Shown here one piece after another: positions 3,548-30,990 of a DNA stretch of 32,000 nucleotides. Origin of the DNA: Dehalococcoidia bacterium (GTDB lineage Bacteria; Chloroflexota; Dehalococcoidia; Lucifugimonadales; Australimonadaceae); NCBI GenBank assembly GCA_965219425.1, contig OZ244741.1, forward strand, positions 949,324 through 981,323. Direction: 5' to 3'. A model generated the notes under the pieces. That model saw only the letters and a program-made list of their open reading frames with translations, was not told where the DNA came from and made no database searches. A program made the position numbers and the translations under genes. Every line of letters begins with the position of its first letter. The first letter of the stretch is position 1.

Positions 3548-6500
3548 TTACTCGTCCATCCTGAGCGCTTCCGCCGGATAGACGTTGGACGCCTGCCGCG
3601 CAGGCAGATACGTCGTGAGGAGAGAGGCGCCGTATGCGACCACCACCACGAGAATGATCGTGTCCCATGGGATGGTGTACTTCACCCCGTCGAAGGTCTC
3701 GCCAATCTCCTGGACGATGCTCGCCGACAGCCCGAATCCAAGACCGAGACCCAGCGCAATGCCCAACAGCGCGATGAACGAGGACTCGATCAGGAACGAA
3801 AGCTGCACCATGCCGCGACGGAAGCCGATGGCGCGCAGCACGCCGATCTGCACGCGGCGTTCCACGACGGCGCGCGCTGCAATCACACCAAGGGCGGCGA
3901 TGCCAACCACGAGACCCAAGCCCATGAAGCCCTGGATGAGCCGGTTGAAGGCGAGGTTCAGGGCGGTGAACTCCCGCACGGTTGTCTCGAGCGGTTCTGC
4001 TTGCACCCCGTGTTCGAGGAACTCATCTTCGAGCGCGTCTGCGACCTCCTCCGCGCGCGCCGGATCGCGCAACACAATCTGGTAGGTCAGGAACGGCAGC
4101 TCCACCGGCGCGAGCTCCTGCAGAGTCCCGAGTCCGGTGATGACGGTCGGGGCGAAGAATGCCTGGTCCGCTACGACCCCTATCACGCGCAGCTCCACCA
4201 CTTGCTCCCCTGCAGCGTCAGACACCTCCAGGTACACTTCCGGCAGCTCGCCGCCATCCCGCTGGAAGCCCTCGAGCTGGAACGCCAGGTCCGACCCTCC
4301 GGCGTCGAAGTCCGACGCTGCGGGGACCATCTCCGCATTGACAACGACAACATCCTGCTGCTCCACGAGCGCGCGCCAGATAGCGCGGTCGGAGGCGTAA
4401 CGCTCGTCCTTCAGACTGAACCCATAGGTGACGATTTCCGCGTACCTTTCGTCGATGCCCGTAACGAACCAGTCTTCCGGCTCCTGCTCCGTGTCCAGCT
4501 GCCGGATGCGGATGGGCAGACCGCTCGTTCCGCCGATGGCTGCGAATTCGCTCGCGTCCAACGACGGCGACTCGTCGAGGCGAGCGCCGAAGTCGTCGAT
4601 GGGATTGGTGAAGCTGACCCTCGCGGCAATGTCGATCCCCCCGGAGAACTTGCGAGTGTCGTCCAGCGAGGAAGCAAACGCCGCGTTGATGAATCCCACA
4701 ACCGCCAGTGTGAAGATGACCAGCGAGAACATGGCCAGCGTCATCCCGGTGCGGAAGCGGCTTGCCATCGGATACGCCGTCGCGGTGCGAATGATGGGAG
4801 AAAGCGAACGCCCCTTGCCCGCCAGGGCCGTCACCGCGCCCACGAGAAGCGGCGAGTTGTACATCACCACCCAAACTGCGCCGACCACAACGGTCACTCC
4901 GGAGAGAATGAACAGCTCGATTCCCTCATCCAACCTCGGCAGACCGAGCGCCTCCGGGTCTATCGGAATCATCCAGAGTGCTACGAGCAGTACTCCGGCA
5001 ACCGTGTAAGCGATGGGCTCCGGCAGGAGGCCGACGTGCCTGAGCACGAGAGGCGTCCCCACGAGGACGAGGGATACGCCGAGCAGGAATACTCCCATCT
5101 GCTCCTGCCCGATGCCTGCGTTCGTCACCACCACACCGAGGAGCGCCATCAGGTAACCCGCTAGGAAAAGGGCCCACGCCAATTTGACGACGGCGCACGG
5201 GGCGCTGACGAGCCACAGTCGCAATGCGCGGAGCGGACGCATGCTCCGCAGCGCCCGCGCGCCATCTGCGTAGCAGCGGATCACTGCCGCCCACGACTCG
5301 CGCAGGGCGTGGCCTTCACTCGGCGGCTCCGGTATGTCGCGCACCGCGCGGACGATGTTGAGCGCGCTCACCCTGCCCGCCGAGACGATGACCACCAGGT
5401 AGGTGACCACCATCCCCAGCGTGTACGCGAGAAGCAGGCTCTGCCACCGGAACGCGAACGTGATGTCGAAGTCCTCCAACACCTCGCCCAGCGCAGCCGC
5501 CATTATGCGCACCATCACGGCGCCGACGGCGATGCCTAGCAGGCTGCCTACCGCGGCCGCCGCAAGGGAGTAGACCGCGCCCTCGAAGGTGAAGAGGCGG
5601 ACGATATGCCCGCGCTGCGCGCCCACCGCTCGCGCGATGCCTAGCTCCTTCTTCCGCTCAGCCGCCAACATCACGAAGATCAGCGCGATGAGCAGAATGC
5701 CCGCCATGATCGAGAAGGTGCCGAACAGCAGGAAGACGCTTGCGAACCCCGCGCCAACGGAGTCGGCCTGCTCGATAGCGTCCCTCTTCGGGGTTTCGAA
5801 TCCCAACATGCGCTCCTCGCGCACGTCTTCGAAGGCCTCCAGCACGGCGTCGGTGTGCTCCGCTCCCCCAACGGGGCCTCCTTCGTTCGATATGTAGACG
5901 TAGTTAATCTTCCCCTGCTCGCCCAGCGTCTCCTGCAAGACGCTGAGGCGCATCACCGCCGAAGGAGAAAAAGACGGATTCGTCCCTCCCTTGGCGAACA
6001 CTCCGGCCACGCGCGTCGTCACCGGCGTCTCGTCGAAGAAGAGCGCGACCTCGTCGCCCAGCCCGGCGCGCAAGTCGTCGGCAGCCGACTCGCTCAGGTA
6101 GACCTCGCCATCGCCGAGCGCGTCCAGCGGCAGCTCTCCTCCGTCCGTGTCGCGATAGCCGCCGAGCAAGCCCGTCCGAGCGGGGTCGAGACCCCGCAGC
6201 TGAAGCCTCGGCACGTTCCGCTGCGATTCTAGCGACACCGCCGGGACCCCAAGGGAGATGGCGGGCGCGACGACATCCACCGGCGCGTTAGCCAGCGCCT
6301 CGCGGATGGCGTCAGCCGTTGCCTGCGGGATGTATTCCGGCTCCCCGGAAGCTGTCCTCGTCTCCGAGGAGACATACTCGTCCAGCTCGCCGAGCTGTCC
6401 AACCGCCTGGACCCGAATCGAGTGGGCAAGCGTGTCGCCGGTAGCGAACGACGCGGAGAAGAGGAGCGTCGCCAGCATCAAGCCGACGACGATGAGAACT

Positions 6501-6655
6501 GTCTGCGCGCGCCGCCGCGGGATGTTTCGCACCGCCATCTTCAGCACGACGAGATTGCGCAGCGCGAAAAAGGCCGTTATCGCGCCGGTGACGAGGAACA
6601 CAATGGTCAGCGCGGCAGTGAGCGTGCCTATGGGAATGCCGAAGAGCGTCTCCAT
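3548..6655 (-). CDS. ABC transporter permease, FtsX/MacB family, double-module (1035 aa)
   Basis: Very long ORF with two blocks of clustered TM helices, each preceded by a large soluble (extracytoplasmic) domain. The start is 4 nt downstream of the stop of the cognate MacB/LolD-type ATPase gene. The long ORFs on the opposite strand are shadow ORFs. Confidence 0.8.
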   Translation of the reverse strand: METLFGIPIGTLTAALTIVFLVTGAITAFFALRNLVVLKMAVRNIPRRRAQTVLIVVGLMLATLLFSASFATGDTLAHSIRVQAVGQLGELDEYVSSETRTASGEPEYIPQATADAIREALANAPVDVVAPAISLGVPAVSLESQRNVPRLQLRGLDPARTGLLGGYRDTDGGELPLDALGDGEVYLSESAADDLRAGLGDEVALFFDETPVTTRVAGVFAKGGTNPSFSPSAVMRLSVLQETLGEQGKINYVYISNEGGPVGGAEHTDAVLEAFEDVREERMLGFETPKRDAIEQADSVGAGFASVFLLFGTFSIMAGILLIALIFVMLAAERKKELGIARAVGAQRGHIVRLFTFEGAVYSLAAAAVGSLLGIAVGAVMVRIMAAALGEVLEDFDITFAFRWQSLLLAYTLGMVVTYLVVIVSAGRVSALNIVRAVRDIPEPPSEGHALRESWAAVIRCYADGARALRSMRPLRALRLWLVSAPCAVVKLAWALFLAGYLMALLGVVVTNAGIGQEQMGVFLLGVSLVLVGTPLVLRHVGLLPEPIAYTVAGVLLVALWMIPIDPEALGLPRLDEGIELFILSGVTVVVGAVWVVMYNSPLLVGAVTALAGKGRSLSPIIRTATAYPMASRFRTGMTLAMFSLVIFTLAVVGFINAAFASSLDDTRKFSGGIDIAARVSFTNPIDDFGARLDESPSLDASEFAAIGGTSGLPIRIRQLDTEQEPEDWFVTGIDERYAEIVTYGFSLKDERYASDRAIWRALVEQQDVVVVNAEMVPAASDFDAGGSDLAFQLEGFQRDGGELPEVYLEVSDAAGEQVVELRVIGVVADQAFFAPTVITGLGTLQELAPVELPFLTYQIVLRDPARAEEVADALEDEFLEHGVQAEPLETTVREFTALNLAFNRLIQGFMGLGLVVGIAALGVIAARAVVERRVQIGVLRAIGFRRGMVQLSFLIESSFIALLGIALGLGLGFGLSASIVQEIGETFDGVKYTIPWDTIILVVVVAYGASLLTTYLPARQASNVYPAEALRMDE

Positions 6656-6659
6656 CGCC

Positions 6660-7367
6660 CTACTCTCCCTTGCCGTCTGCCGAGACTAGCTCGTCGCTTT
6701 CGATGTGCCCGTCCCGCATTCGCACGATGCGTCCGGCGCGAGAGCCAACCGTGTTGTCGTGCGTAACGAGCACAAACGTCTGCTCCCGTTCTTGATTGAG
6801 CTGGCAGAGCAGGTCCATGATGTGAGCGCCGGTCTCGCTGTCCAGAGCGCCGGTCGGCTCGTCCGCCCAGACGATGGCCGGGTCATTCACGAGGGCGCGC
6901 GCGATGGTGACGCGCTGCTGCTGCCCCCCGGACATCTCTGCGGGGCGCTTGCCTGCCTGGTCCGCCAGCTCCACCATCTCGAGCACTTCCATAGCGCGGG
7001 CGCGGGCCTTCGACTGACCCTCGCCCGCGAGCAGCAGCGGCAGCTCGACGTTCTCCGCGCCCGTGAGCACAGGCAGAAGATTGTAGGACTGGAACACAAA
7101 CCCCATGTTCAGCGCGCGGTACTGCGTGCGCTCCCTATCGGACATGTCGTGGATCGACGCGCCGTCGATGATCACTTGACCGCTGGTCACGTCGTCAATG
7201 CCCGAGAAGGTGTTCAGCAAGGTCGTCTTGCCCGACCCGGACGGGCCCATGATTGCGACCATCTGGCCCTTTTCGATTTCCAGGCCGATGCCCTGTAGGG
7301 CGTGAACCTCAATCTCTCCAGCGTGGTAGGTCTTGTACACATTCTCGGCTTCGATAATATTCGTCAC
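6660..7367 (-). CDS. ABC transporter ATP-binding protein (MacB/LolD-like)
   Basis: Walker [13 protein letters not shown]-loop, signature [15 protein letters not shown], Walker [12 protein letters not shown] and H-loop THD. The length of 235 aa is typical. Confidence 0.9.
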
Positions 7368-7507
7368 TCAAACCGCCTCTATTTCTGATATGAACGAGTC
7401 TATCCGACGCCTGCCTGCCGTCCAATAGCCGAATGTCTCGGACGGGAGCGGGTTCCCGACAAGGGTCTGGGCGGGTGGGAGTCCGTGGGCTGTCCGCGAG
7501 TAGGCTG

Positions 7508-7524
7508 TTAACATTCCCTTAAGC
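7508..7524 (+). promoter_or_regulatory. Candidate Pho box: TTAACA-N5-TTAAGC direct repeat with 11-bp phasing, upstream of the response regulator gene
   Basis: Hexamers read at 7508-7513 and 7519-7524. A -10-like TACAAT sits at 7545-7550, 50 nt upstream of the ATG at 7600. The pattern resembles the Bacillus-type PhoP site (TT[ATC]ACA repeats spaced by about 5 nt). Confidence 0.3.
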
Positions 7525-7599
7525 GTCGAGCAACAGTATGGCCATACAATGGCGGCGTGGCCCCTACTAAACGCTGGTCAGGCCTGGGAGCACAGCACA

Positions 7600-8289
7600 A
7601 TGACGAGCCGCTCCGTTCTGGTCGTTGAAGACGAAGAGAATCTCCTCGAAGCGCTGAAATACAACCTCGAGCACGAGGGCTATAGCGTCCTCACCGCGGA
7701 GGATGGCGTCACCGGCCTTGAGACGGCGAGGTCGGCCTCGCCGGACCTCGTCGTGCTGGACGTGATGCTCCCTCAGATGGACGGCCTGGAAGTCTGCCGT
7801 ATCCTCCGGCGCGAGAAGGACATGCCGATCTTGATGCTGACCGCCAAGGGCGAAGAAATCGACGTAGTCGTCGGCCTGGAGCTCGGCGCCGACGACTACG
7901 TCACCAAACCGTTCAGTATGCGGGAGTTGATGGCGAGGGTGCGGGCAATGCTGCGCCGGCCCCGTCAGACGGCCCTCGGCCGGCTCAGCGAGCCGCTGCG
8001 CTCCGGCTCCCTCGAAGTCGACGTCGAGGCCCACCACGCATCCCTGAACGGACAGGAGATCAAGCTCAAGCCGCGCGAGTTCGAGCTGCTCGCTCTCTTC
8101 ATGAAGAATCGCGGACGCGCCTTCACCCGAGACCAGATCCTCTCCCATCTGTGGGGGCACGACTACATCGGCGACGTCCGCACCGTCGACGTGCATGTCC
8201 GGTGGCTTCGCGAGAAGGTCGAAGCCGACCCCGCCACCCCCGCCAGAATCATAACGATACGGGGCGTCGGCTACCGCTTCGAGGGCTAA
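7600..8289 (+). CDS. OmpR/PhoB-family response regulator (PhoB/PhoP-like by context)
   Basis: Receiver domain (VLVVEDEENL, phospho-acceptor DLVVLDVMLP, conserved K in TKPF) plus a winged-helix output domain (TVDVHVRWLREKV, IITIRGVGYRF). A GGGAG SD lies 9 nt before the ATG at 7600. It is adjacent to a PhoR-like kinase and the pst operon. Confidence 0.85.
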   Translation: MTSRSVLVVEDEENLLEALKYNLEHEGYSVLTAEDGVTGLETARSASPDLVVLDVMLPQMDGLEVCRILRREKDMPILMLTAKGEEIDVVVGLELGADDYVTKPFSMRELMARVRAMLRRPRQTALGRLSEPLRSGSLEVDVEAHHASLNGQEIKLKPREFELLALFMKNRGRAFTRDQILSHLWGHDYIGDVRTVDVHVRWLREKVEADPATPARIITIRGVGYRFEG

Positions 8290-8301
8290 AGGAGCCGGCG
8301 C

Positions 8302-9675
8302 ATGGGCGGACGTAGATGGCTCCTGACCCTCGCCGGCTCGCTCGCCGCCCTACTCGCAGCGGCTGTTCTGGCTTTCGCCGCATCGCAACCGCTGATTGGC
8401 GCGCTCGTGCTCATTGGAGCGTTAGCCGCGATGACGAGGGCTATTGCCGCACACCGCGTCGGCGGAGCGGCGCGGGCTGAGGCTGCGGCCGTCGGCGAGG
8501 CGATGGCGAGCGTGGCGTCCGGCGACTTCGCTGCCAGGCCCGGCCTTCTATCGTCCGAGCCGCTCAGCGCGCTCCAAGCCCCGTTCGACGCCATGGCCGG
8601 GTCCATCGCAGCCCTCTTCAGCCAGCTGTCGGACCAGCGAAGTCAGCTCGAGGCCGTGCTCGACACGATGGCCGACGGCGTGGTCGTGGTCGATGGCGAG
8701 AACAGACTCTCGTTGGCGAACCCAGCCGCTCAGGACCTCCTTGGGATCGGGAGCGTATCGGGCGAGCGGCTCAGCACAGCTTTCCGCGACCACGAGTTGC
8801 AGGGCCTGGTGACAGTCTGCCGCCGGCAGCACGCGCAGCAGCGCGCAGAGCTGCACCTCCCCAGCGTGCGGCGGACCGTCAGCGCAACGGCGACGCCGTT
8901 GATATCGTCGCCCGGAGCCCCCGAGGCGTCGGTCTTGCTCACCCTCCACGACCTCACGACCCTTCGTCAGCTGGAGACGACCCGCCGCGAGTTCGTCGCG
9001 AACGTCTCCCACGAGCTGCGCAGCCCGTTGGCCTCCGTGAAAGCGATGGTGGAGACGCTCGAAGGGGGCGCCATCAGTGACGAGGCCGTCGCCGCCGACT
9101 TCCTCCAACGCGCGCATCGCGAGGTCGACCGTATGAGCGCGATAGTAGACGACCTACTGGAGCTCTCCCGCATCGAGAGCGGCCAGTCCAAGCTGCGGAA
9201 AGAGATCGTCTCGCTAGCCGCCATCGCCATGGGAGTGCGCTCGACGTTGGAGCCGCGCTCCAGTTCGTCCGGAATCGAAGTCGAGGTCTCCGCTCATGCG
9301 GACTGGCCTGTCCTCGGCGACGAGGGAAAGCTGCGGCAGGTCGTCTCGAACCTCCTCGACAACGCGCTGAAGTTCACGCCTCAGGGAGGCCGCATCGAAA
9401 TCTCCATCGGCGAGAACCCCACCGGCGACGCAGTCCGGGTGGAGGTCCGCGACAACGGCGACGGCATATCGCCCGAACACCTGCCACACCTCTTCGAGCG
9501 CTTCTACAAGGCGGACCGCTCCCGCCACGGCAAGGGGACCGGCCTCGGGCTGGCCATCGTCAAGCACATCGTCGAGTCTCACGGCGGCGAGATCGGGGTC
9601 GAGAGCGAGCTGGGAACCGGGAGCACGGTCTGGTTCACCATCCCCCGTCCGGCACGCCTCCTAACCCCTCGTTAA
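8302..9675 (+). CDS. Sensor histidine kinase, PhoR-like (2 TM, HAMP-like linker, PAS, HisKA, HATPase_c)
   Basis: Two N-terminal TM helices with almost no external loop. PAS-like segment LEAVLDTMADGVVVVDGENRLSLANPAA, H-box FVANVSHELRSPL, N-box LLDNALKF and G-boxes DNGDGI / GTGLGLAIVKH. An AGGAG SD lies upstream. Confidence 0.85.
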   Translation: MGGRRWLLTLAGSLAALLAAAVLAFAASQPLIGALVLIGALAAMTRAIAAHRVGGAARAEAAAVGEAMASVASGDFAARPGLLSSEPLSALQAPFDAMAGSIAALFSQLSDQRSQLEAVLDTMADGVVVVDGENRLSLANPAAQDLLGIGSVSGERLSTAFRDHELQGLVTVCRRQHAQQRAELHLPSVRRTVSATATPLISSPGAPEASVLLTLHDLTTLRQLETTRREFVANVSHELRSPLASVKAMVETLEGGAISDEAVAADFLQRAHREVDRMSAIVDDLLELSRIESGQSKLRKEIVSLAAIAMGVRSTLEPRSSSSGIEVEVSAHADWPVLGDEGKLRQVVSNLLDNALKFTPQGGRIEISIGENPTGDAVRVEVRDNGDGISPEHLPHLFERFYKADRSRHGKGTGLGLAIVKHIVESHGGEIGVESELGTGSTVWFTIPRPARLLTPR

Positions 9676-17233: not shown

Positions 17234-17640
17234 ACCTCTCCCCCGTCTGCGGGGGAGACTGAGAAGGGGCCGTCTCCGGGGGAAGACCCTAACCTCTCCC
17301 CCGTCTGCGGGGGAGACTGAGAGGGGGCCGTCTCCGGGGGAAGACCCTAACCTCTTCCCCGTCTGCGGGGGAGACTGAGAAGGGGCCGTCTCCGGGGGAA
17401 GACCCTAACCTCTCCCCCGTCTGCGGGGGAGACTGAGAGGGGGCCGTCTCCGGGGGAAGACCCTAACCTCTTCCCCGTCTGCGGGGGAGACTGAGAGGGG
17501 GCCGTCTCCGGGGGAAGACCCTAACCTCTCCCCCGTCTGCGGGGGAGACTGAGAGGGGGCCGTCTACGGGGGAAGACCCTAACCTCTCCCCCGTCCGCGG
17601 GGGAGACTGAGAGGGGCCCGTCCGGTGGAGGACTGAGGAG
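17234..17640. repeat. Tandem array A: 58-bp unit x about 7 (CCTCTCCCCCGTCTGCGGGGGAGACTGAGAGGGGGCCGTCTCCGGGGGAAGACCCTAA), each unit with hairpin CTCCCCC-GTCTGC-GGGGGAG
   Basis: The GTCTGC landmark recurs ending at 17250, 17308, 17366, 17424, 17482, 17540 and 17598, an exact 58-bp period. Units differ by only 1-2 nt, and the last unit is degenerate. Confidence 0.95.
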
Positions 17641-23049: not shown

Positions 23050-23512
23050 GAACTCCCTCTCCCCTGTCTGCGGGGGAGAGTTAGAGACCCCCTCCACCAT
23101 CCTGGGGGAGGGCTGGGGAGGGGGCCCGTCTGCGGGGGAGACTGAGAGGGGGCCGTCTGCGGGGGAACACCCTAACCTCTCCCCCGTCTGCGGGGGAGAC
23201 TGAGAGGGGGCCGTCTGCGAGGGGATACCCTAACCTCTCCCCCGTCTGCGGGGGAGACTGAGAGGGGGCCGTCTGCGGGGGAACACCCCAACCTCTCCCC
23301 CGTCTGCGGGGGAGACTGAGAGGGGGCCGTCTGCGGGGGAACACCCTAACCTCTCCCCGTCTGCGGGGGAGACTGAGAGGGGCCCATCTGCGGGGGAACA
23401 CCCTAACCTCTCCCCCGTCTGCGGGGGACACTGAGAGGGGGACGTCTGCAGGGGAACACCCTAACCTCTCCCCCGTCTGCGAGGGAGACTGAGAGGGGGG
23501 GCCGTCCGCGAG
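23050..23512. repeat. Tandem array B: 58-bp unit x about 7 (CCTCTCCCCCGTCTGCGGGGGAGACTGAGAGGGGGCCGTCTGCGGGGGAACACCCTAA); same family and orientation as array A but with its own variant
   Basis: Unit starts at 23176, 23234, 23292, 23350, 23407 and 23465, plus an irregular leading unit from about 23055. The consensus differs from array A at 2 of 58 positions (GTCTGC vs GTCTCC; GAACAC vs GAAGAC). Confidence 0.95.
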
Positions 23513-26147: not shown

Positions 26148-26357
26148 AATCGTGGCGGGTTCTTTGGCAAACCTGTCGAACCACGGGCGAACGCCCTCAG
26201 GCGACCGCCCCACTGGTTCGTGGTGAGCCTGTCGAACCACGGGCGAACGCCCTCAGGCGAACGCCCCACTGGTTCGTGGTGGGCCTGTCGAACCACGGGC
26301 AAACGCCCTCAGGCGACCGCCCCCACTGGTTCGTGGTGAGCCTGTCGAACCACGGGC
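26148..26357. repeat. Tandem array C: 56-57-bp unit x about 3.5 (CCTGTCGAACCACGGGCGAACGCCCTCAGGCGACCGCCCCACTGGTTCGTGGTGAG), hairpin TGGTTCG-N12-CGAACCA spanning unit junctions
   Basis: CCTGTCGAA recurs at 26172, 26228, 26284 and 26341. It shares its core with the single elements at 18177-18229 and 20640-20697. Confidence 0.9.
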
Positions 26358-26445
26358 GAGCATGACGCTCCACAGCCGCAGGCGCCCCGCGCGCGGGGTA
26401 TACTCCGGCCAAAGACAAGTCGAACGCGAATAGGAGGAGCAAACG

Positions 26446-27528
26446 ATGACTATCTCGGTTTCACACGGCGGCGGGTCGACGGTGCTGACGGCGGACGCGC
26501 CCAGCGACGAGGCGCTCATCGGCACGGTCGACGGGGTCGTCCGGATCGTGCGTGGCGCGGCAGGCTGGACGGCGACAGAGCGCACGTTGCAGGGGCTGCA
26601 CATCCACGCGCTGGTGCAGGACCCCCAGAGCGGCGTCTGGTTCTGCGGCGTCGAGCACGGCGGCGTCTACGCCAGCGAGGACGACGGCCGCACCTGGTCG
26701 AAGCGCAACGACGGCATCACGGAGCAGGACATCTACAGCCTCTCCGTCGCAGAGGTCGACGGCAAGACGCGCGTATTCGTGGGCACGGAGCCGGCCCATC
26801 TGTTCATCAGCGATGACCTGGGGCGGACGTGGACGGAGAAGCCCGCCCTCCACGCCCAGGAAACCGGCGAGTGGAGGTTCCCCGGCCCGCCCCATATCGC
26901 GCACCTGAAGCACATCAGCTTCCGCCCCGGCGACACGAGCACCGTGTACGCCAGCATCGAGCAGGGCGGCCTCTACCGCTCCACCGACGGCGGCGACACC
27001 TTCGACGAGATCCCCGGCATGTACAACGACGTCCACCGGCTCGTATCGAACCCGTCGGACGCCAACCGCATGTTCGTCACCGGCGGCATGGGCCTCTGGC
27101 TCTCCCGCGACTACGGCGCGACGTGGGAGAACGTGTTCAGCAGAGGAAGCGAGTTCGGCGGCTACCCCGACCAGCTCGTCTTCAAGCCGAGCGACCCCTC
27201 CTACATGCTCATCACTGCGGGACAGGAGAGCCCCGGCTCATGGCGCCGCGACCGCACGGCGCAGACTCGTATCTCCCGCAGCCGCGACGCAGGCGAGACC
27301 TGGGAGGTGCTGAGCGCCCCCGGCTTGGACGACAAGTTCGTCCCCAGTGTCGAGGCGATGACCCTGGAGGAGAGCGGCTCCGTCGTGCAGGTCTTCGCCG
27401 CCACCTCCCACGGCGAGGTCCTCTGGTCCGAGGACGGCGGCGATTCTTGGCGGAAAGCCGTCGCCGGCCTCGCCCCAGTCTCCAAAGGCGGCCACTACCA
27501 CGCCTTCGCAAGCGACCCGCGCGCGTGA
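26446..27528 (+). CDS. BNR/Asp-box repeat beta-propeller protein (sialidase-fold / Ycf48-like), no signal peptide
   Basis: Six Asp-box motifs (SxDxGxTW-like): SEDDGRTWS, SDDLGRTWT, STDGGDTFD, SRDYGATWE, SRDAGETWE and SEDGGDSWR. A TAGGAGGAG SD lies upstream. Confidence 0.8.
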   Translation: MTISVSHGGGSTVLTADAPSDEALIGTVDGVVRIVRGAAGWTATERTLQGLHIHALVQDPQSGVWFCGVEHGGVYASEDDGRTWSKRNDGITEQDIYSLSVAEVDGKTRVFVGTEPAHLFISDDLGRTWTEKPALHAQETGEWRFPGPPHIAHLKHISFRPGDTSTVYASIEQGGLYRSTDGGDTFDEIPGMYNDVHRLVSNPSDANRMFVTGGMGLWLSRDYGATWENVFSRGSEFGGYPDQLVFKPSDPSYMLITAGQESPGSWRRDRTAQTRISRSRDAGETWEVLSAPGLDDKFVPSVEAMTLEESGSVVQVFAATSHGEVLWSEDGGDSWRKAVAGLAPVSKGGHYHAFASDPRA

Positions 27529-27555
27529 GTGGGACGTAACCCCGGCCAAGCAAGA

Positions 27556-27591
27556 GAGGCCCCGGCCATGCGCCGGGGCCTCTTCATTTGG
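27556..27591. terminator. Intrinsic terminator (bidirectional candidate): GAGGCCCCGGC-CATGC-GCCGGGGCCTC followed by TTCATTTGG
   Basis: Perfect 11-bp GC-rich stem plus a T-rich tail on the plus strand, 28 nt after the BNR gene stop. On the minus strand the stem is followed by TCTCTTGCTTG. A second hairpin, GTTGGATG-CC-CATCCAAC, sits at 27616-27633. Confidence 0.7.
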
Positions 27592-27695: not shown

Positions 27696-27899
27696 TCAGC
27701 CCTCATCGTCATCGTCGTCTTCGGAGCCGTCGTCCCACTCGCCGCACCAGTCGGTCGAGCGCACCCAGGGCCAGATCGCGACGCCTGCCTCGTTGACGTG
27801 TGGAGGGTTGGAGCGGCAGAGCCCCGCGTATTCGCTGAAGGCGGGGTCCATACGCCCATCGAGGTATATACAGGTGGCGCAGGTGTGGTCGTCGTCCAT
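27696..27899 (-). CDS. Hypothetical small four-Cys protein (67 aa) with poly-acidic C-terminus
   Basis: AAGGAG SD 10 nt upstream of the ATG at 27899. Cys pattern C7-x2-C10 ... C28 ... C52 (HTCATCIYL, GLCRSNPP, DWCGEW) and tail DDGSEDDDDDEG. No named family was recalled. Confidence 0.55.
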   Translation of the reverse strand: MDDDHTCATCIYLDGRMDPAFSEYAGLCRSNPPHVNEAGVAIWPWVRSTDWCGEWDDGSEDDDDDEG

Positions 27900-27947
27900 G
27901 TGGTAGTTGCTCCTTGTAGCAGGTGAGGTCCGTAATGGGGCAGCGTC

Positions 27948-27978
27948 AAACGTTCAAATGCGCCCCGCCCGTCACCGG
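27948..27978. repeat. Left copy of perfect 31-bp direct repeat AAACGTTCAAATGCGCCCCGCCCGTCACCGG (orphan copy of the SDR gene 3' end)
   Basis: Identical to 28507-28537. On the minus strand it reads PVTGGAHLNV followed by TGA. Confidence 0.95.
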
Positions 27979-28025
27979 GGCCTCTTGCTACTGCCCACTA
28001 AGGCTGATACGCCTTCGGCCCAAAG

Positions 28026-28343
28026 TTACGCATATGAGTCGATTTCGTCGACGCATGACTGTGTATGAGGATCGTAATTGCTTGAGGTATACCACTCGCC
28101 TTCGCGGACTGACACGTCCGAGAGCTTATCAATGTCGATGCGTCGCCAATTGTCTTCGGAACCAGTCGGAGCAAGCCCGCTCTTGCTATCGCCTCCGAAC
28201 TGATAGAAGAACGCCCGGTAATGGCCATTCTTCGTTCCTATGACATGCGGGCACATCTCCCGGCGACGACCATCGTATGTCGCGCTGATCTGCCGCTTCC
28301 CAAGGATAGCGTCCCGAATGGTGATGTAATCGTTGTGCGCCAT
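28026..28343 (-). CDS. Hypothetical 105-aa protein, WYL-like / SH3-type beta-barrel suspected, encoded in the low-GC insert
   Basis: The ORF has a GGGGGA SD. The pattern ISATYDGRRREMCPHVIGTKNGHYRAFFYQFGG...NWRRIDIDKLSDV resembles the WYL-domain logic (beta-hairpins followed by W-R-x-[FI]-x-[IL]-[DS]-[KR]-[IL]). This is a memory-based, weak assignment. Confidence 0.5.
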   Translation of the reverse strand: MAHNDYITIRDAILGKRQISATYDGRRREMCPHVIGTKNGHYRAFFYQFGGDSKSGLAPTGSEDNWRRIDIDKLSDVSVREGEWYTSSNYDPHTQSCVDEIDSYA

Positions 28344-28504
28344 CGAGTTATATCCCCCTATCCCACCAGCTTGGGCTGCTTGGCCGGCTTACGCCCCAGA
28401 TGCTGTCGCTTCAAGGATAGTGTTGCGGAAAGCGCGGAAAGCTACGAGACGTGTTGCGGTGCCTCGTTGGGAGTGGCCATGCTCATACGGCGAGTATACC
28501 GCCC

Positions 28505-29257
28505 CTAAACGTTCAAATGCGCCCCGCCCGTCACCGGCAGGATCGCGCCGGTGATGTGCTTCGCGGCGTCGGAGGCAAGAAAGGCGATGGCTTCCGCTAC
28601 GTCCTCGGGCTCGCCGATCTTGCCCAGCGGCACGCGCCTCGCCATCGCCGCCTCGACCTCCGGCGTGATCTCCCCAACCATGGGGGTGGCCGTGGGGCCG
28701 GGAGCGACGCAGTTGACCCGAATGCCGTCGCGGGCGTGGTCAATCGCCATCGCCTCGGTCAGGTTGTGGACGCCGGCCTTGGCGGCCCCGTAGGCTGCCC
28801 GCCCCGCCGGGCCCCGGAAGCCGGATATTGCCGAAACGTTGATGACGACTCCTCCGCTGCCGCGCCGCTTCATGTCCAGCACCGCCGCCCGCGCTACGAG
28901 GAACGTGCCCGTGAGGTTGGTGTCGAGGGTGTCTCTCCAACGCTGAGGCGGGAGGTCCGCCACGGAGCCGGTGGCGCGGATGCCGGCGGCGTTCACCGCG
29001 ATGTCCACGCCGCCGTAGAGCGCGGCCGCCTGCTCGAAGGCCTGGCCGACCTCCTCCGAGGACCGGATGTCCGTGCTCACGAACGTCCCCTCCCCGCCCG
29101 CCTCGCGTATCGCCGTGAGCGTCGCCTCGCCCGCCTCGACGTTGCGGGAGAGCCCCACGACGTTCGCGCCCTCGGCGGCGAGGAGGACTGCCGCAGCCTG
29201 ACCGATGCCGGAGCCGAAGCCGGTCACGACCGCGGTCTTGCCGTCGAAGCGTCCCAT
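28505..29257 (-). CDS. Short-chain dehydrogenase/reductase (SDR) family oxidoreductase, FabG-like
   Basis: TGxxxGIG cofactor motif (VTGFGSGIGQA), NVSA, catalytic YGAAKAG (YxxxK) and PGPTATPM. The start ATG shares one nucleotide with the upstream gene's TGA (TGATG). Confidence 0.9.
   Translation of the reverse strand: MGRFDGKTAVVTGFGSGIGQAAAVLLAAEGANVVGLSRNVEAGEATLTAIREAGGEGTFVSTDIRSSEEVGQAFEQAAALYGGVDIAVNAAGIRATGSVADLPPQRWRDTLDTNLTGTFLVARAAVLDMKRRGSGGVVINVSAISGFRGPAGRAAYGAAKAGVHNLTEAMAIDHARDGIRVNCVAPGPTATPMVGEITPEVEAAMARRVPLGKIGEPEDVAEAIAFLASDAAKHITGAILPVTGGAHLNV
28507..28537. repeat. Right copy of perfect 31-bp direct repeat (functional 3' end of the SDR gene)
   Basis: Identical to 27948-27978. 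It encodes PVTGGAHLNV followed by TAG at 28505-28507. Confidence 0.95.
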
Positions 29258-30030
29258 CAGAGCGCCGGGAGCGGGTCGATCTTGCCCGCGGCGATCTCGG
29301 CGATGCGCGCCTCGTCAGGCGCCAGTCCGTACATTTCGGAGCGCATGCGGAGCCGTTCCGTGCATATCTCCATCAGCATCCGCAGGAGAGTCTCCAGCTC
29401 CTCGGGGTCGTCGAGCTCATTCTCGACGCTCTCGGCGCCGTGCTCGCCATGCCCGACCTCGTCGTCGTAGACAATCCGCGACGCCCCCTTGATTCGGAGC
29501 AGCAACGGGTCGTCCGTCTCGAGCGCCGCGCCTGCGTGGAATATCCCCGCGCCGCCGCCCTCGGCAAAGTTATAGGCGATGTGGGCCATCCGCTCGTCCT
29601 CGGCGATGAGACGGCTCCGCATCGCCTCGATGCGGGCGTCGCCGGGAAGGCGCAGGCCGTCCAGGTCCCTCATCAGCACCGGCTGCCCGGTGATGTCCTC
29701 TAGGATGTCGGCGAAGAGCCGAAAGTGCGTGAACTCTTGGCGCAGCGCCTCGAGCTGGTACTCCAGAGTGTCCCTGCCCTCCTTGGTCTCGGCGGCGGGA
29801 AGCCGGTCCCGCACGTTGTCGATGATCCACTGCATGCGGCTGTGGGGCCGGGCGAGCAGACCGGGGCCGCGCAGCTCGCGGTAGCACTGATGCCGGATCC
29901 AGTGGACGTGGTCCAGGGGCCGGTGGGGCGCGGTGAGGAAGTTGCGGGCGATCTCGGCCTCGCCGGCCCAGAAGCGCTGCCCCAGGGCGCGGATCCGGCT
30001 CTTCAGGTCGGCGGCGGTTGCGGTGGTCAT
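29257..30030 (-). CDS. Hypothetical ferritin-like (putative di-iron carboxylate) protein, paralog 1 (257 aa)
   Basis: Spacing of candidate ligands typical of four-helix-bundle di-iron proteins: GEAE (helix A), QEFTH = ExxH (helix B), FAEGGG (helix C), DDEVGHGEH = ExxH (helix D). AGGAG SD. About 45% identical by eye to the upstream paralog. Family not identified. Confidence 0.6.
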   Translation of the reverse strand: MTTATAADLKSRIRALGQRFWAGEAEIARNFLTAPHRPLDHVHWIRHQCYRELRGPGLLARPHSRMQWIIDNVRDRLPAAETKEGRDTLEYQLEALRQEFTHFRLFADILEDITGQPVLMRDLDGLRLPGDARIEAMRSRLIAEDERMAHIAYNFAEGGGAGIFHAGAALETDDPLLLRIKGASRIVYDDEVGHGEHGAESVENELDDPEELETLLRMLMEICTERLRMRSEMYGLAPDEARIAEIAAGKIDPLPAL

Positions 30031-30060: not shown

Positions 30061-30840
30061 CTAGCTCACAGCGTGGACGTTAAGAGGCGTGATGCGCCCG
30101 TCTGTGATCTCGGCGATGCGTGCCTCGTCCACGGGGAGACCGAACATCTCGTAGCGCATGCGGAGGCGCTGCTGGCAGATGACCACGACAATCTCCCTCG
30201 CCTCGGCCCACTCCTCCTCCGAGTCCAGGCTGTTGCCGAGCTCCGACGCCCCATGCTCGCCGTGCTCGGTCTCGTCCTCGAAGACGATGGCGCAGGCGGC
30301 GGCAATCCGGTCGGAGAGCGGATCGCCGCCGATCTTGCGCCCCTCATGGAAGAACGACGCGCCCCCGCCCTCGGTGAAGCCGATGGCGGCCTCGCCGACA
30401 CGCCCCCTGTCCTCGCGGGCGGACTGGCGCACCTGTTGGAGCTTCGCGTCCTCCGGCAGCTGCCAGCCGCGCAGCTTCTCCAGGCGCACGGGCTCGCCGA
30501 CGGCGTCCTCCAAGATATCGGCGAAGAGGCGGTAGTGGGTGAACTCCTCGCGCAGCACGCGGATGTCGCGCTCGAATTCGTTCCGCTGGGCCTTCGTTTG
30601 CGCCTCGGGCAAGGTCTGGGCAAGCCTTTCGATGAGGCCACGGATGATGCCGTCCGGGTGCCCGGCGAGGCCGGAACCGAACATCTCCTTGTAGACCTGC
30701 AAGCGCAGCCATCGCGCCTGCTCCTCGGTGGAGCGCGGCTCGCCCCAGAACTGACGGCATATCTCCGCTTCGCCCGCCCAGAAGCGCAGGGCTAGTTCGT
30801 TCATCTCGCCGGCCAGCTCACGTTTACGCTGTTCGTCCAT
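30061..30840 (-). CDS. Hypothetical ferritin-like (putative di-iron carboxylate) protein, paralog 2 (259 aa)
   Basis: Same conserved blocks: RFWAGEAEI, LREEFTHYRLFADILED, FTEGGGA, FEDETEHGEHGA, RLRMRYEMFGL and DEARIAEI. A strong AGGAGG SD lies 6 nt upstream of the ATG at 30840. Confidence 0.6.
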   Translation of the reverse strand: MDEQRKRELAGEMNELALRFWAGEAEICRQFWGEPRSTEEQARWLRLQVYKEMFGSGLAGHPDGIIRGLIERLAQTLPEAQTKAQRNEFERDIRVLREEFTHYRLFADILEDAVGEPVRLEKLRGWQLPEDAKLQQVRQSAREDRGRVGEAAIGFTEGGGASFFHEGRKIGGDPLSDRIAAACAIVFEDETEHGEHGASELGNSLDSEEEWAEAREIVVVICQQRLRMRYEMFGLPVDEARIAEITDGRITPLNVHAVS

Positions 30841-30990
30841 GCGCCCCTCCTAGCGGGGCTAGCCTACGACGGGCGGGCGCAGCCGGGCAAGCGCGCCGGA
30901 CATCCCCTGTCTTTCGGGATGACGCAACCCACCGCGCGCCGCCCGCAAACTACGCTCTGCCCTACCTCGCGCTGACGTATCCTCCCGCCC

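Follow-up and report, generated by a model that had tools for sequence, protein, structure and literature searches.

A perfect 31-bp repeat around a WYL-domain gene in Dehalococcoidia may record the stacking of two alleles of a variable intergenic slot

The 3' end of a short-chain dehydrogenase gene is duplicated around a single-gene insert

We analysed a 32,000-nt stretch of a Dehalococcoidia bacterium genome (contig OZ244741.1, forward-strand positions 949,324 to 981,323; hereafter the window), in which the 3' end of a short-chain dehydrogenase (SDR) gene is present twice. All coordinates below are window positions unless a locus label (L followed by a number) precedes them. The SDR gene is convergent with a gene encoding a BNR/Sortilin-type repeat protein, and the gap between them contains, starting from the SDR gene, an open reading frame (ORF) for a 105-aa WYL-domain protein, an ORF for a Cys-rich protein of 67 aa and a bidirectional terminator hairpin (Table 1). 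We refer to the segments carrying the first and the second ORF as the W unit and the C unit. The 31-mer AAACGTTCAAATGCGCCCCGCCCGTCACCGG was found exactly twice in the window, on either side of the WYL ORF. No further copy was found in the window even at 3 mismatches, and 100 shuffles produced 0 matches.

Translation indicated that the intact SDR protein ends in ...PVTGGAHLNV and that the orphan copy of the repeat encodes the same ten residues followed by a TGA stop codon. The initial annotation of this DNA had described a pair of perfect 31-bp direct repeats, the right copy being the true end of the SDR gene and the left one an orphan; both were located, both are perfect and they are the sole copies in the window. 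The composition of the insert was also as described. Hand counts of 50% G+C in the insert and 71% outside it fit our 100-nt windows (0.49-0.52 and 0.73, respectively), and the 528-bp insert as a whole has 56.1% G+C, with a G+C content at third codon positions (GC3) of 0.63 in its ORF, against 71.4% and a GC3 of 0.90 for the SDR gene. The description of a single gene in the orientation of the operon, with no recombinase, was equally borne out: the sole ORF of the insert encodes the WYL domain, and no recombinase Pfam family was detected within 10 kb either side of the locus in L001, a contig near-identical to the window. The Cys-rich ORF had no Pfam or NCBIfam match.

Table 1 Features of the SDR-BNR gap in the window, states of the same gap in related contigs, and loci where a gene of the WYL family adjoins an OLD-like gene.
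Feature	Position or locus	Strand	Remark
SDR gene, 250 aa	28505-29257	-	left border of the variable slot
Repeat copy 1 (B31)	28507-28537	-	final 30 nt of the SDR coding sequence and T of the TAG stop; joined to the intact gene
W unit, unique part, 528 bp	27979-28506	-	56.1% G+C
Non-coding stretch, 163 bp, 5' of the WYL ORF	28344-28506	-	opens with AGGGGCGG right after the T of the SDR stop
WYL-domain ORF, 105 aa	28026-28343	-	same orientation as the SDR gene
T' copy 1, AAGAGGCCCCGG, end of the W unit	27975-27986	-	overlaps repeat copy 2 by 4-nt CCGG (novel junction)
Repeat copy 2 (B31), orphan	27948-27978	-	same ten codons, then GA, giving TGA as in the single-copy allele L002
Five SNPs co-segregating with the extra unit	27840-27942		window identical to L001; L002 differs
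Cys-rich ORF, 67 aa, cargo of the C unit	27696-27899	-	
Resident bidirectional terminator hairpin	27555-27584	.	between the Cys gene and the convergent BNR gene
T' copy 2, AAGAGGCCCCGG	27573-27584	-	left arm of the resident hairpin in gene orientation; 402 bp from copy 1
BNR/Sortilin-type repeat protein gene	26446-27528	+	convergent with the SDR gene; right border of the slot
Bare slot, ~105 bp	L187, L188, L190		sister species, ~92% DNA identity
Slot with 109/122-aa gene	L184-L186, L191		gene on the opposite strand
Slot with Cys gene only	L002		
Slot with WYL and Cys genes	window, L001		
OLD-adjacent loci	L087 5962-8570; L011 6001-8027; L146, L152, L081, L035, L153, L165, L080, L027, L079, L039		

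The insert is polymorphic between near-identical strains

An exact look-up of the SDR protein returned three contigs, among them L001 and L002. L001 (ENA ERZ25072590 contig_12, 288 kb), an independent assembly, has the same order of SDR, 105-aa and 67-aa genes and differs from the window by one base across a 590-bp region. In L002 (ENA ERZ25067264, 33.5 kb), the 67-aa Cys gene directly follows the SDR gene and the 31-mer is present once. This contig lacks exactly 559 bp, corresponding to the 528 bp and one 31-mer, between flanks that are ~98% identical to the window. BLAST aligned L002 10721-15597 with window 27978-23125 and L002 8364-10751 with window 30895-28507, and the two alignments overlap by exactly the 31-mer. 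The locus is an insertion/deletion polymorphism of compositionally foreign DNA, with occupied alleles in the window and L001 and an empty allele in L002. The initial annotation had left room for an arrangement common to all relatives, with no empty site; L002 provides that site, the SDR gene being followed there by the small Cys gene after a single 31-mer.

For kilobases on either side of the locus, L001 matches L002 exactly. Apart from the indel, the two are distinguished by one single-nucleotide polymorphism (SNP) in the SDR gene and by five more within ~105 bp beyond the orphan repeat. Beyond these five SNPs, ~1.8 kb follow without any difference between the two contigs. Because L001 and L002 differ only in this short tract, the allele appears to spread by homologous recombination of its flanks, and comparison of the two sequences suggests that the SNPs, followed by unchanged DNA, mark the edge of the exchanged tract. 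The five SNPs beside the indel also mean that L002 is no simple recent deletion derivative of the allele carrying both units.

The insert ends match the native sequence of a variable slot

Other versions of the gap were found in metagenome-assembled genomes (MAGs) labelled Dehalococcoidia, via members of the SDR and BNR protein clusters. Their comparison indicates that, in this group, a small slot of variable content separates the convergent SDR and BNR genes. It occurs in four states: bare, with a 109/122-aa gene, with the Cys gene alone, and with the WYL and Cys genes together. In the bare state, the SDR stop codon is followed by a ~45-nt spacer, a terminator hairpin of the form GCAAGAGGCC[T/C]CGG-loop-CCG[A/G]GGCCTCTCTTGC and the BNR gene. 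Neither a second 31-mer nor a recombinase was found in the sister-species slots (seven related slots).

Comparison with these slots revealed that both ends of the insert look native. Together, the last 10 nt of the insert and the first 4 nt of the repeat (GCAAGAGGCC|CCGG) correspond to a left terminator arm: in the relatives, a hairpin with this arm lies behind the SDR gene. The segment GCAAGAGGCCCCGG (27975-27988) matches the terminator arm of the sister species L187 and L188 at 13/14 positions, and in the bare slots L187 and L190 the arm reads exactly as the terminal 10 nt, GCAAGAGGCC, directly before [T/C]CGG. In ~170 kb of related DNA, GCAAGAGGCC was found only in that arm of L187 and L190. 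The insert end is nearer to the sister-species arm than to the resident copy of the window (TGAAGAGGCC). At its other end, the insert begins after the stop-codon T with AGGGG, as in L184-L187 (TAGGGGG), whereas the C allele reads TGACGCC.

Since the insert ends match native slot sequence, the 31-mer is one of two interleaved repeat pairs. The second pair is made of the 12-mer AAGAGGCCCCGG, present at the end of the W unit and in the resident hairpin (12/12 match); its copies are 402 bp apart, those of the 31-mer 559 bp apart. The only other match to AAGAGGCCCCGG in the 32 kb has 1 mismatch and is the opposite arm of the same hairpin. The order at the locus is [31-mer, WYL gene, arm][31-mer, Cys gene, arm, rest of terminator]. 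The two interleaved pairs form the pattern expected if the slot had been duplicated in tandem, each unit with its own contents; the duplicated interval would begin 31 nt ahead of the SDR stop and extend as far as the terminator's left arm. At the novel junction between T' and B31, a 4-nt CCGG microhomology is common to the terminator arm and the SDR 3' end. This junction lies within an imperfect patch, CCGGCGCATGGCCGGGGC versus CCGGTGACGGGCGGGGC, with 14/18 identical positions by manual comparison, and both breakpoints coincide with the borders between stem and loop in predicted hairpins.

A 13-nt imperfect repeat at both ends of the cargo, TTAG(T)GGGC(G/A)GTA, was also considered and was rejected, as shuffling gave an equivalent in 741/5000 cases. 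In the slots occupied by the opposite-strand gene, the cargo (L184 3814-4143, L191 3593-3961) encodes 109/122 aa with the pattern ...LIRLT...AEYA...GVV.EVYS...MRQ.Y.G.S....FRKG, for which no Pfam match was obtained. The 5 nt immediately preceding the terminator arm in these slots, CAGTA, are also present at the end of the WYL unit, possibly by chance.

A proposed origin by illegitimate recombination between two slot alleles

We propose that the locus is a heterologous tandem duplication in which two slot alleles have been stacked, the scar of an accidental recombination event and not the footprint of a new mobile element. We assign this reading a rough probability of 0.55. The W-only parent allele, the order of events and the route of DNA entry that we infer are as follows. 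A chromosome with the C allele (SDR-TGA-Cys gene-terminator) would have undergone recombination with DNA of a W allele (SDR-TAG-WYL gene-terminator). At an illegitimate junction, the left arm of the W terminator (...GCAAGAGGCC-CCGG) would have been joined to the SDR 3' end (CCGG-TGACGGG...) at the 4-nt microhomology, and a second exchange, in or upstream of the SDR gene, would have been ordinary homologous recombination. The logic would be that of homology-facilitated illegitimate recombination or, equivalently, of unequal crossing-over; a looped-out circle re-entering via the 31-bp homology would be an equivalent route, indistinguishable from the first.

This scheme would account for both ends of the 31-bp repeat. 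Its left end would be the illegitimate junction and its right end, at the second base of the stop codon, the end of the homology between the W and C alleles; the repeat would end inside the stop codon because the two alleles cease to be homologous there. The 31-mer would now be passive: it would permit the precise loss of 559 bp by recombination or slippage without being a recombinase site, and the whole allele would move between strains via its flanking homology. The predicted W-only allele would have the WYL unit running into the terminator loop, CAGTAGCAAGAGGCCCCGGCGC.

Homology-facilitated illegitimate recombination, with junctions at 3-10 bp of microhomology, has been documented in transformable bacteria. 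The summary in PMC6382021 covers transformation of Acinetobacter baylyi, Streptococcus pneumoniae and Pseudomonas stutzeri, and cites de Vries & Wackernagel 2002, Prudhomme 2002 and Meier & Wackernagel 2003 for such junctions. The locus resembles these products in having continuous homology on one side (the SDR gene), a short GC-rich microhomology at the other junction (CCGG, within the 3-10 bp range summarised there), and neither a dedicated recombinase nor element ends. It differs in that the junction lies upstream of the end of the anchor, so that 31 bp were duplicated instead of resident DNA being deleted. Furthermore, the published products were seen in experiments, whereas here the event would have to be read from natural alleles of an uncultivated organism whose donor allele is unsampled.

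Several observations weigh against this origin. Of the two parents, only the C allele could be identified, in L002, alongside slots that are bare or hold other cargo; no W-only allele (SDR-WYL-terminator-BNR) turned up in the collections searched, and just two contigs of the protein collection carry the WYL protein at >=90% identity. Part of the terminator-arm similarity could be generic: at an unrelated locus, the Dehalococcoidia MAG L021 has a hairpin whose stem is the same 12-mer. When position was disregarded, the local alignment of the whole insert with the bare slot was not significant (112/1000 shuffles), and the argument from end similarity therefore rests on the match at the exact terminus. 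Searching the left part of the insert for leftover ancestral spacer gave no significant match either (53/1000 and 410/1000 shuffles). The sister species L190 has TGA GGGGGG and not TAG GGGG, which weakens the argument at the left junction. Finally, genes of the same WYL family lie between duplicated gene ends in other genomes (L067, an acidobacterial group, L162 and L011, described below), and this could reflect a mechanism linked to the family.

The cargo is a stand-alone WYL-like protein of a widespread family

The AlphaFold model of the 105-aa protein (pLDDT 91) consists of an N-terminal helix and a beta-barrel. The ten best PDB matches obtained with Foldseek were WYL domains of DriD, PafBC and BrxR, with TM-scores of 0.53-0.62 normalised to the query. 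Sequence profiles gave weaker signals: WYL PF13280 scored 13.2 bits against a gathering threshold of 21.8 (E = 0.095), the PADLOC WYL model gave E = 0.0097, and no Pfam, NCBIfam, PHROG or PADLOC model matched at threshold. The structural model indicates that the protein has the Sm/SH3-like beta-barrel fold of solved WYL domains. It resembles the WYL regulators DriD, PafBC and BrxR in this predicted fold, the sequence matches to WYL models being weak, and differs from them as a stand-alone protein of 105 aa with an N-terminal helix, no helix-turn-helix (HTH) or WCX domain, and conserved C31, H33, C68 and C97.

A search of the protein collection returned 122 relatives of ~104-106 aa, annotated at source only as "hypothetical" or "WYL domain-containing". 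Residues C31, P32, H33, G36, K38, W66, R67 and C97 are invariant across the family, and C68 is almost invariant. At this position the window copy encodes Arg (R68; CGC, codon 28140-28142) and L001 Cys (C68; TGC), and this codon holds the sole difference between the window and L001 in the 590-bp region. R68 may inactivate a putative Cys/His metal site and impair the protein. The cargo is a horizontally acquired stand-alone WYL protein, probably acting as a ligand- or ssDNA-binding accessory linked to defence.

The nearest relative outside the species, P0002, is 70% identical and is encoded in L004, another Dehalococcoidia MAG, between tatA and a major facilitator superfamily (MFS) gene. The DNA similarity of the insert to L004 ends at the ORF borders. 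The two non-coding parts of the insert (163 bp and 47 bp) had no match at any other family locus, and the insert had no Rfam match. A consensus scan detected no sigma-70-like promoter in the 163-bp upstream stretch, and it gave no terminator consensus.

Family members are scattered over many phyla and were not found in the phage collection. Two are integron cassettes: the gene in L049 (Luteimonas flava NZ_JAZHBM010000003.1, 6001-9346) is followed by five ~60-bp attC sites (GCCTAAC...GTTAGGC or variants), and the one in L145 (540-1204) lies between two attC-like sites of ~130 bp. Small ColE1-type plasmids of E. coli and Shigella also carry a family gene. In at least 12 loci from several phyla, the family gene adjoins an OLD-family ATPase/TOPRIM nuclease (best PADLOC match 'Old'; Table 1), and in L087 and L146 a second WYL protein is encoded between the two. 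The WYL and OLD-nuclease neighbourhood may be a two- or three-gene defence module. At ~34 mostly acidobacterial loci the family gene is fixed between the same two conserved ORFs, representing one vertically inherited insertion.

Family genes are enclosed by duplicated sequence in a number of other contexts. In L067 (5856-6443, Dehalococcoidia MAG OZ220679.1), a low-GC insert (0.49 versus 0.66) carries a single gene for a protein 59% identical to that of the window; on either side of it lies the 3' end of the upstream DinB_2 gene, duplicated over 86 bp at 87% identity. The two copies are 504 bp apart, the downstream one being frameshifted. In the four loci inspected among the ~34 mentioned above (L116 688-1825, L109 5268-6431, L170 559-1668 and L151 5948-6434), the downstream gene begins with MQLTYLEAIRQGIWEEMDRDP, like the 2-oxoacid dehydrogenase E1-beta subunit, and an orphan duplicate of its 5' end and upstream region flanks the insert. 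These acidobacterial duplicates are 87-98% identical in the coding part and ~75% identical upstream, with 452-1074 bp between copies. In L162, a 168-bp duplication encloses the family gene. In L011 (5039-9835, Gloeobacter kilaueensis CP003587.1), a perfect 33-bp direct repeat surrounds a partly low-GC island of 4.8 kb encoding the family protein, an OLD-like nuclease and a Uma2 endonuclease, in which no integrase was found; this repeat ends at the stop-codon T as in the window, with T|AA in the intact gene and T|GA in the orphan copy. L087 (489-10312, Solirubrobacterales MAG OZ241364.1) is a tRNA island with a perfect 45-bp repeat of the tRNA 3' end at its borders. Midway along it, a truncated tyrosine integrase (194 aa) is encoded, a position which suggests two elements in tandem; the half without integrase encodes the family protein, the second WYL protein, the OLD-like nuclease and an RNase T-like exonuclease.

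As a control, all repeat pairs in 1.36 Mb of family loci were collected: 6 pairs enclose the gene, against 3.8 expected. Some pairs at family loci are REP-like hairpins (L115, L119, L033), terminators (L093) or attC sites (L145). A family-wide mechanism generating repeats was rejected, the excess being too weak.

Alternative origins of the 31-bp repeat

The alternatives are taken here in decreasing order of plausibility. The initial annotation had interpreted the repeats as attL and attR of a classic site-specific integration event, and comparison of the insert ends with the sister alleles changed this reading. In its present form, the alternative holds that the 559-bp unit is a decayed or minimal element akin to a cis-mobilizable element (CIME), flanked by attL and attR, whose integrase acted in trans or was lost. 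An attP carrying the last 31 bp of the SDR gene would fit perfect repeats placed over a gene 3' end with the frame restored, and both the single-copy empty site and the foreign composition of the insert agree with such an event. Elements of the CIME class, which keep attL and attR without integration genes, have been described (PMC5704250) and are also catalogued in ICEberg 2.0 (PMC6323972); they share with the window unit the direct repeats containing a target-gene end, the lack of integrase or transfer genes, and an empty site. Two members of the WYL family add to the case, L087, lying in a classical tRNA island that is bounded by 45-bp repeats and contains a truncated integrase, and the Gloeobacter island L011 with its 33-bp repeats ending at a stop-codon T.

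Against site-specific integration stand the insert ends, which match native slot sequence on both sides of the repeat, form part of a second, interleaved repeat pair and are not element-specific as those of a CIME would be. The sister species vary at the same slot, with other cargo and no repeats. The non-coding parts of the insert, the expected seat of arm sites, have no counterpart near other family members. The unit is only 0.56 kb long, and neither a cognate integrase-bearing element nor a tandem partner was found. The annotation had further proposed that other copies, or larger elements with the same core, might exist: a 26-nt core of the 31-mer gave 0 matches in JGI metagenome contigs and IMG/VR, no other occupant of the site or copy of the core was seen in the window or in those two collections, and no integrase was present in the seven related slots or within 10 kb in L001, the remainder of the 3.7-Mb genome being outside the reach of the search. 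Its suggestion that the insert is the remnant of a larger island found no support. We consider site-specific integration rather unlikely. A dif/Xer site, as used by integrative mobile elements exploiting Xer recombination (IMEX), was considered separately. The GGGGCGCATTT part of the 31-mer resembles the XerC arm of E. coli dif, but the sequence beside GGGGCGCATTT is unlike a XerD arm and the site lies inside a gene, and the candidate was set aside.

Alternatively, an unrelated fragment ending in its own generic terminator could have been captured, either at a staggered break with 31-nt fill-in or by double illegitimate recombination. The 4-nt CCGG microhomology at the right junction and the lack of inverted repeats and of a recombinase would suit this explanation, terminators with a AAGAGGCCCCGG stem do occur elsewhere in Dehalococcoidia (L021), and target duplications that vary in length from 31 to ~170 bp flank other family members. 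Capture would, however, require two coincidences, namely the GCAAGAGGCC identity at the exact end of the insert and AGGGG at its exact start, and it does not predict that the repeat boundary falls exactly at the end of W/C homology. We regard it as improbable. Stacking of two slot alleles, in comparison, would place that boundary where the homology ceases.

A third possibility is an undescribed mini-cassette, made of a single WYL gene with no recombinase, which would circularise and would enter and leave at gene ends via short homology using host recombination only. It would explain why, in Dehalococcoidia, Acidobacteria, Gloeobacter and others, family genes are found between repeated ends of adjoining genes; direct repeats enclose the family gene in at least four further independent contexts (L067; L116/L109/L170/L151; L162, 168 bp; L011, 33 bp). 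The enrichment of enclosing pairs in the control is weak, however, the inserts have only the ORF in common, and the cargo is a WYL beta-barrel without a catalytic fold. More than 150 loci, the majority, have no flanking repeat, and ~34 loci trace to one vertically inherited insertion. Integron cassettes (L049, L145) and ColE1 plasmids already account for the mobility of the family. Such a cassette appears very doubtful.

An assembly artefact, in which the assembler would have collapsed or duplicated the repeat, has a negligible probability: two short-read Logan contigs (run ERR13605531) do end or start within the 31-mer with a 30-nt overlap, but a k=31 graph breaks exactly so at a true 31-bp repeat or polymorphism, the contig of the window and L001, two independent long contigs, share the structure with 1 nt of difference, and the third assembly, L002, has a clean single-copy allele, so that the duplication by assembly that the annotation had contemplated is not what was found.

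Known single-gene elements differ from the window unit in other ways. Integron cassettes are also small units of ~0.5 kb with a single ORF, and the relatives in L049 and L145 are true cassettes; the window unit has no attC, array or IntI, and its flanking repeat is target-gene sequence. No attC core site (RYYYAAC...GTTRRRY) was seen at 27940-28030 by eye or in the predicted fold. Transposons and insertion sequences differ by their inverted repeats and transposase: no terminal inverted repeats pairing the two insert ends were found, and the sole ORF of the insert, the WYL domain, leaves no transposase.

Discussion

The locus is a new instance of known processes, involving a member of an uncharacterised and widespread family of small proteins. 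It carries a caution for genome scans, since a perfect repeat that restores a gene 3' end, together with an empty site, is no proof of an att site. If the origin proposed here is right, uncultivated Dehalococcoidia would provide an example, at the population level, in which microhomology-mediated recombination has stacked two alternative accessory genes, a process known mainly from transformation experiments. The stand-alone WYL family, with its conserved Cys and His residues, its occurrence in cassettes and on plasmids and its OLD neighbours, is a possible component of defence or regulation.

Other features of the window

Upstream of the SDR gene, two tandem paralogous genes on the minus strand (29257-30030 and 30061-30840) encode proteins of 257 and 259 aa that begin alike (...RFWAGEAEI...) and have E..GHGEHG in common. 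Neither had a Pfam or NCBIfam match, and the SDR start overlaps with the stop codon of the first gene. At 30082-30985, in the 259-aa gene and just beyond, a run of closely spaced SNPs distinguishes the window from L001 and L002, which are identical to each other there. The 257-aa and SDR genes beside it are almost identical, and the run looks like a separate imported recombination tract.

The window also contains three tandem arrays (17234-17622, 23125-23499 and 26172-26359). A G+C-rich unit of 58 bp makes up two of them, with 6.7 and 6.5 copies at 94-96% matches, and the remaining one has 3.3 copies of a 56-bp unit. They are not CRISPR arrays and look like intergenic repeats of the repetitive extragenic palindromic (REP) kind. 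Within the 56-bp unit is the sequence CCACGGGCGAAC...GGTTCGTGGTGAG, and the unit is found again upstream of the WYL homologue in L004.

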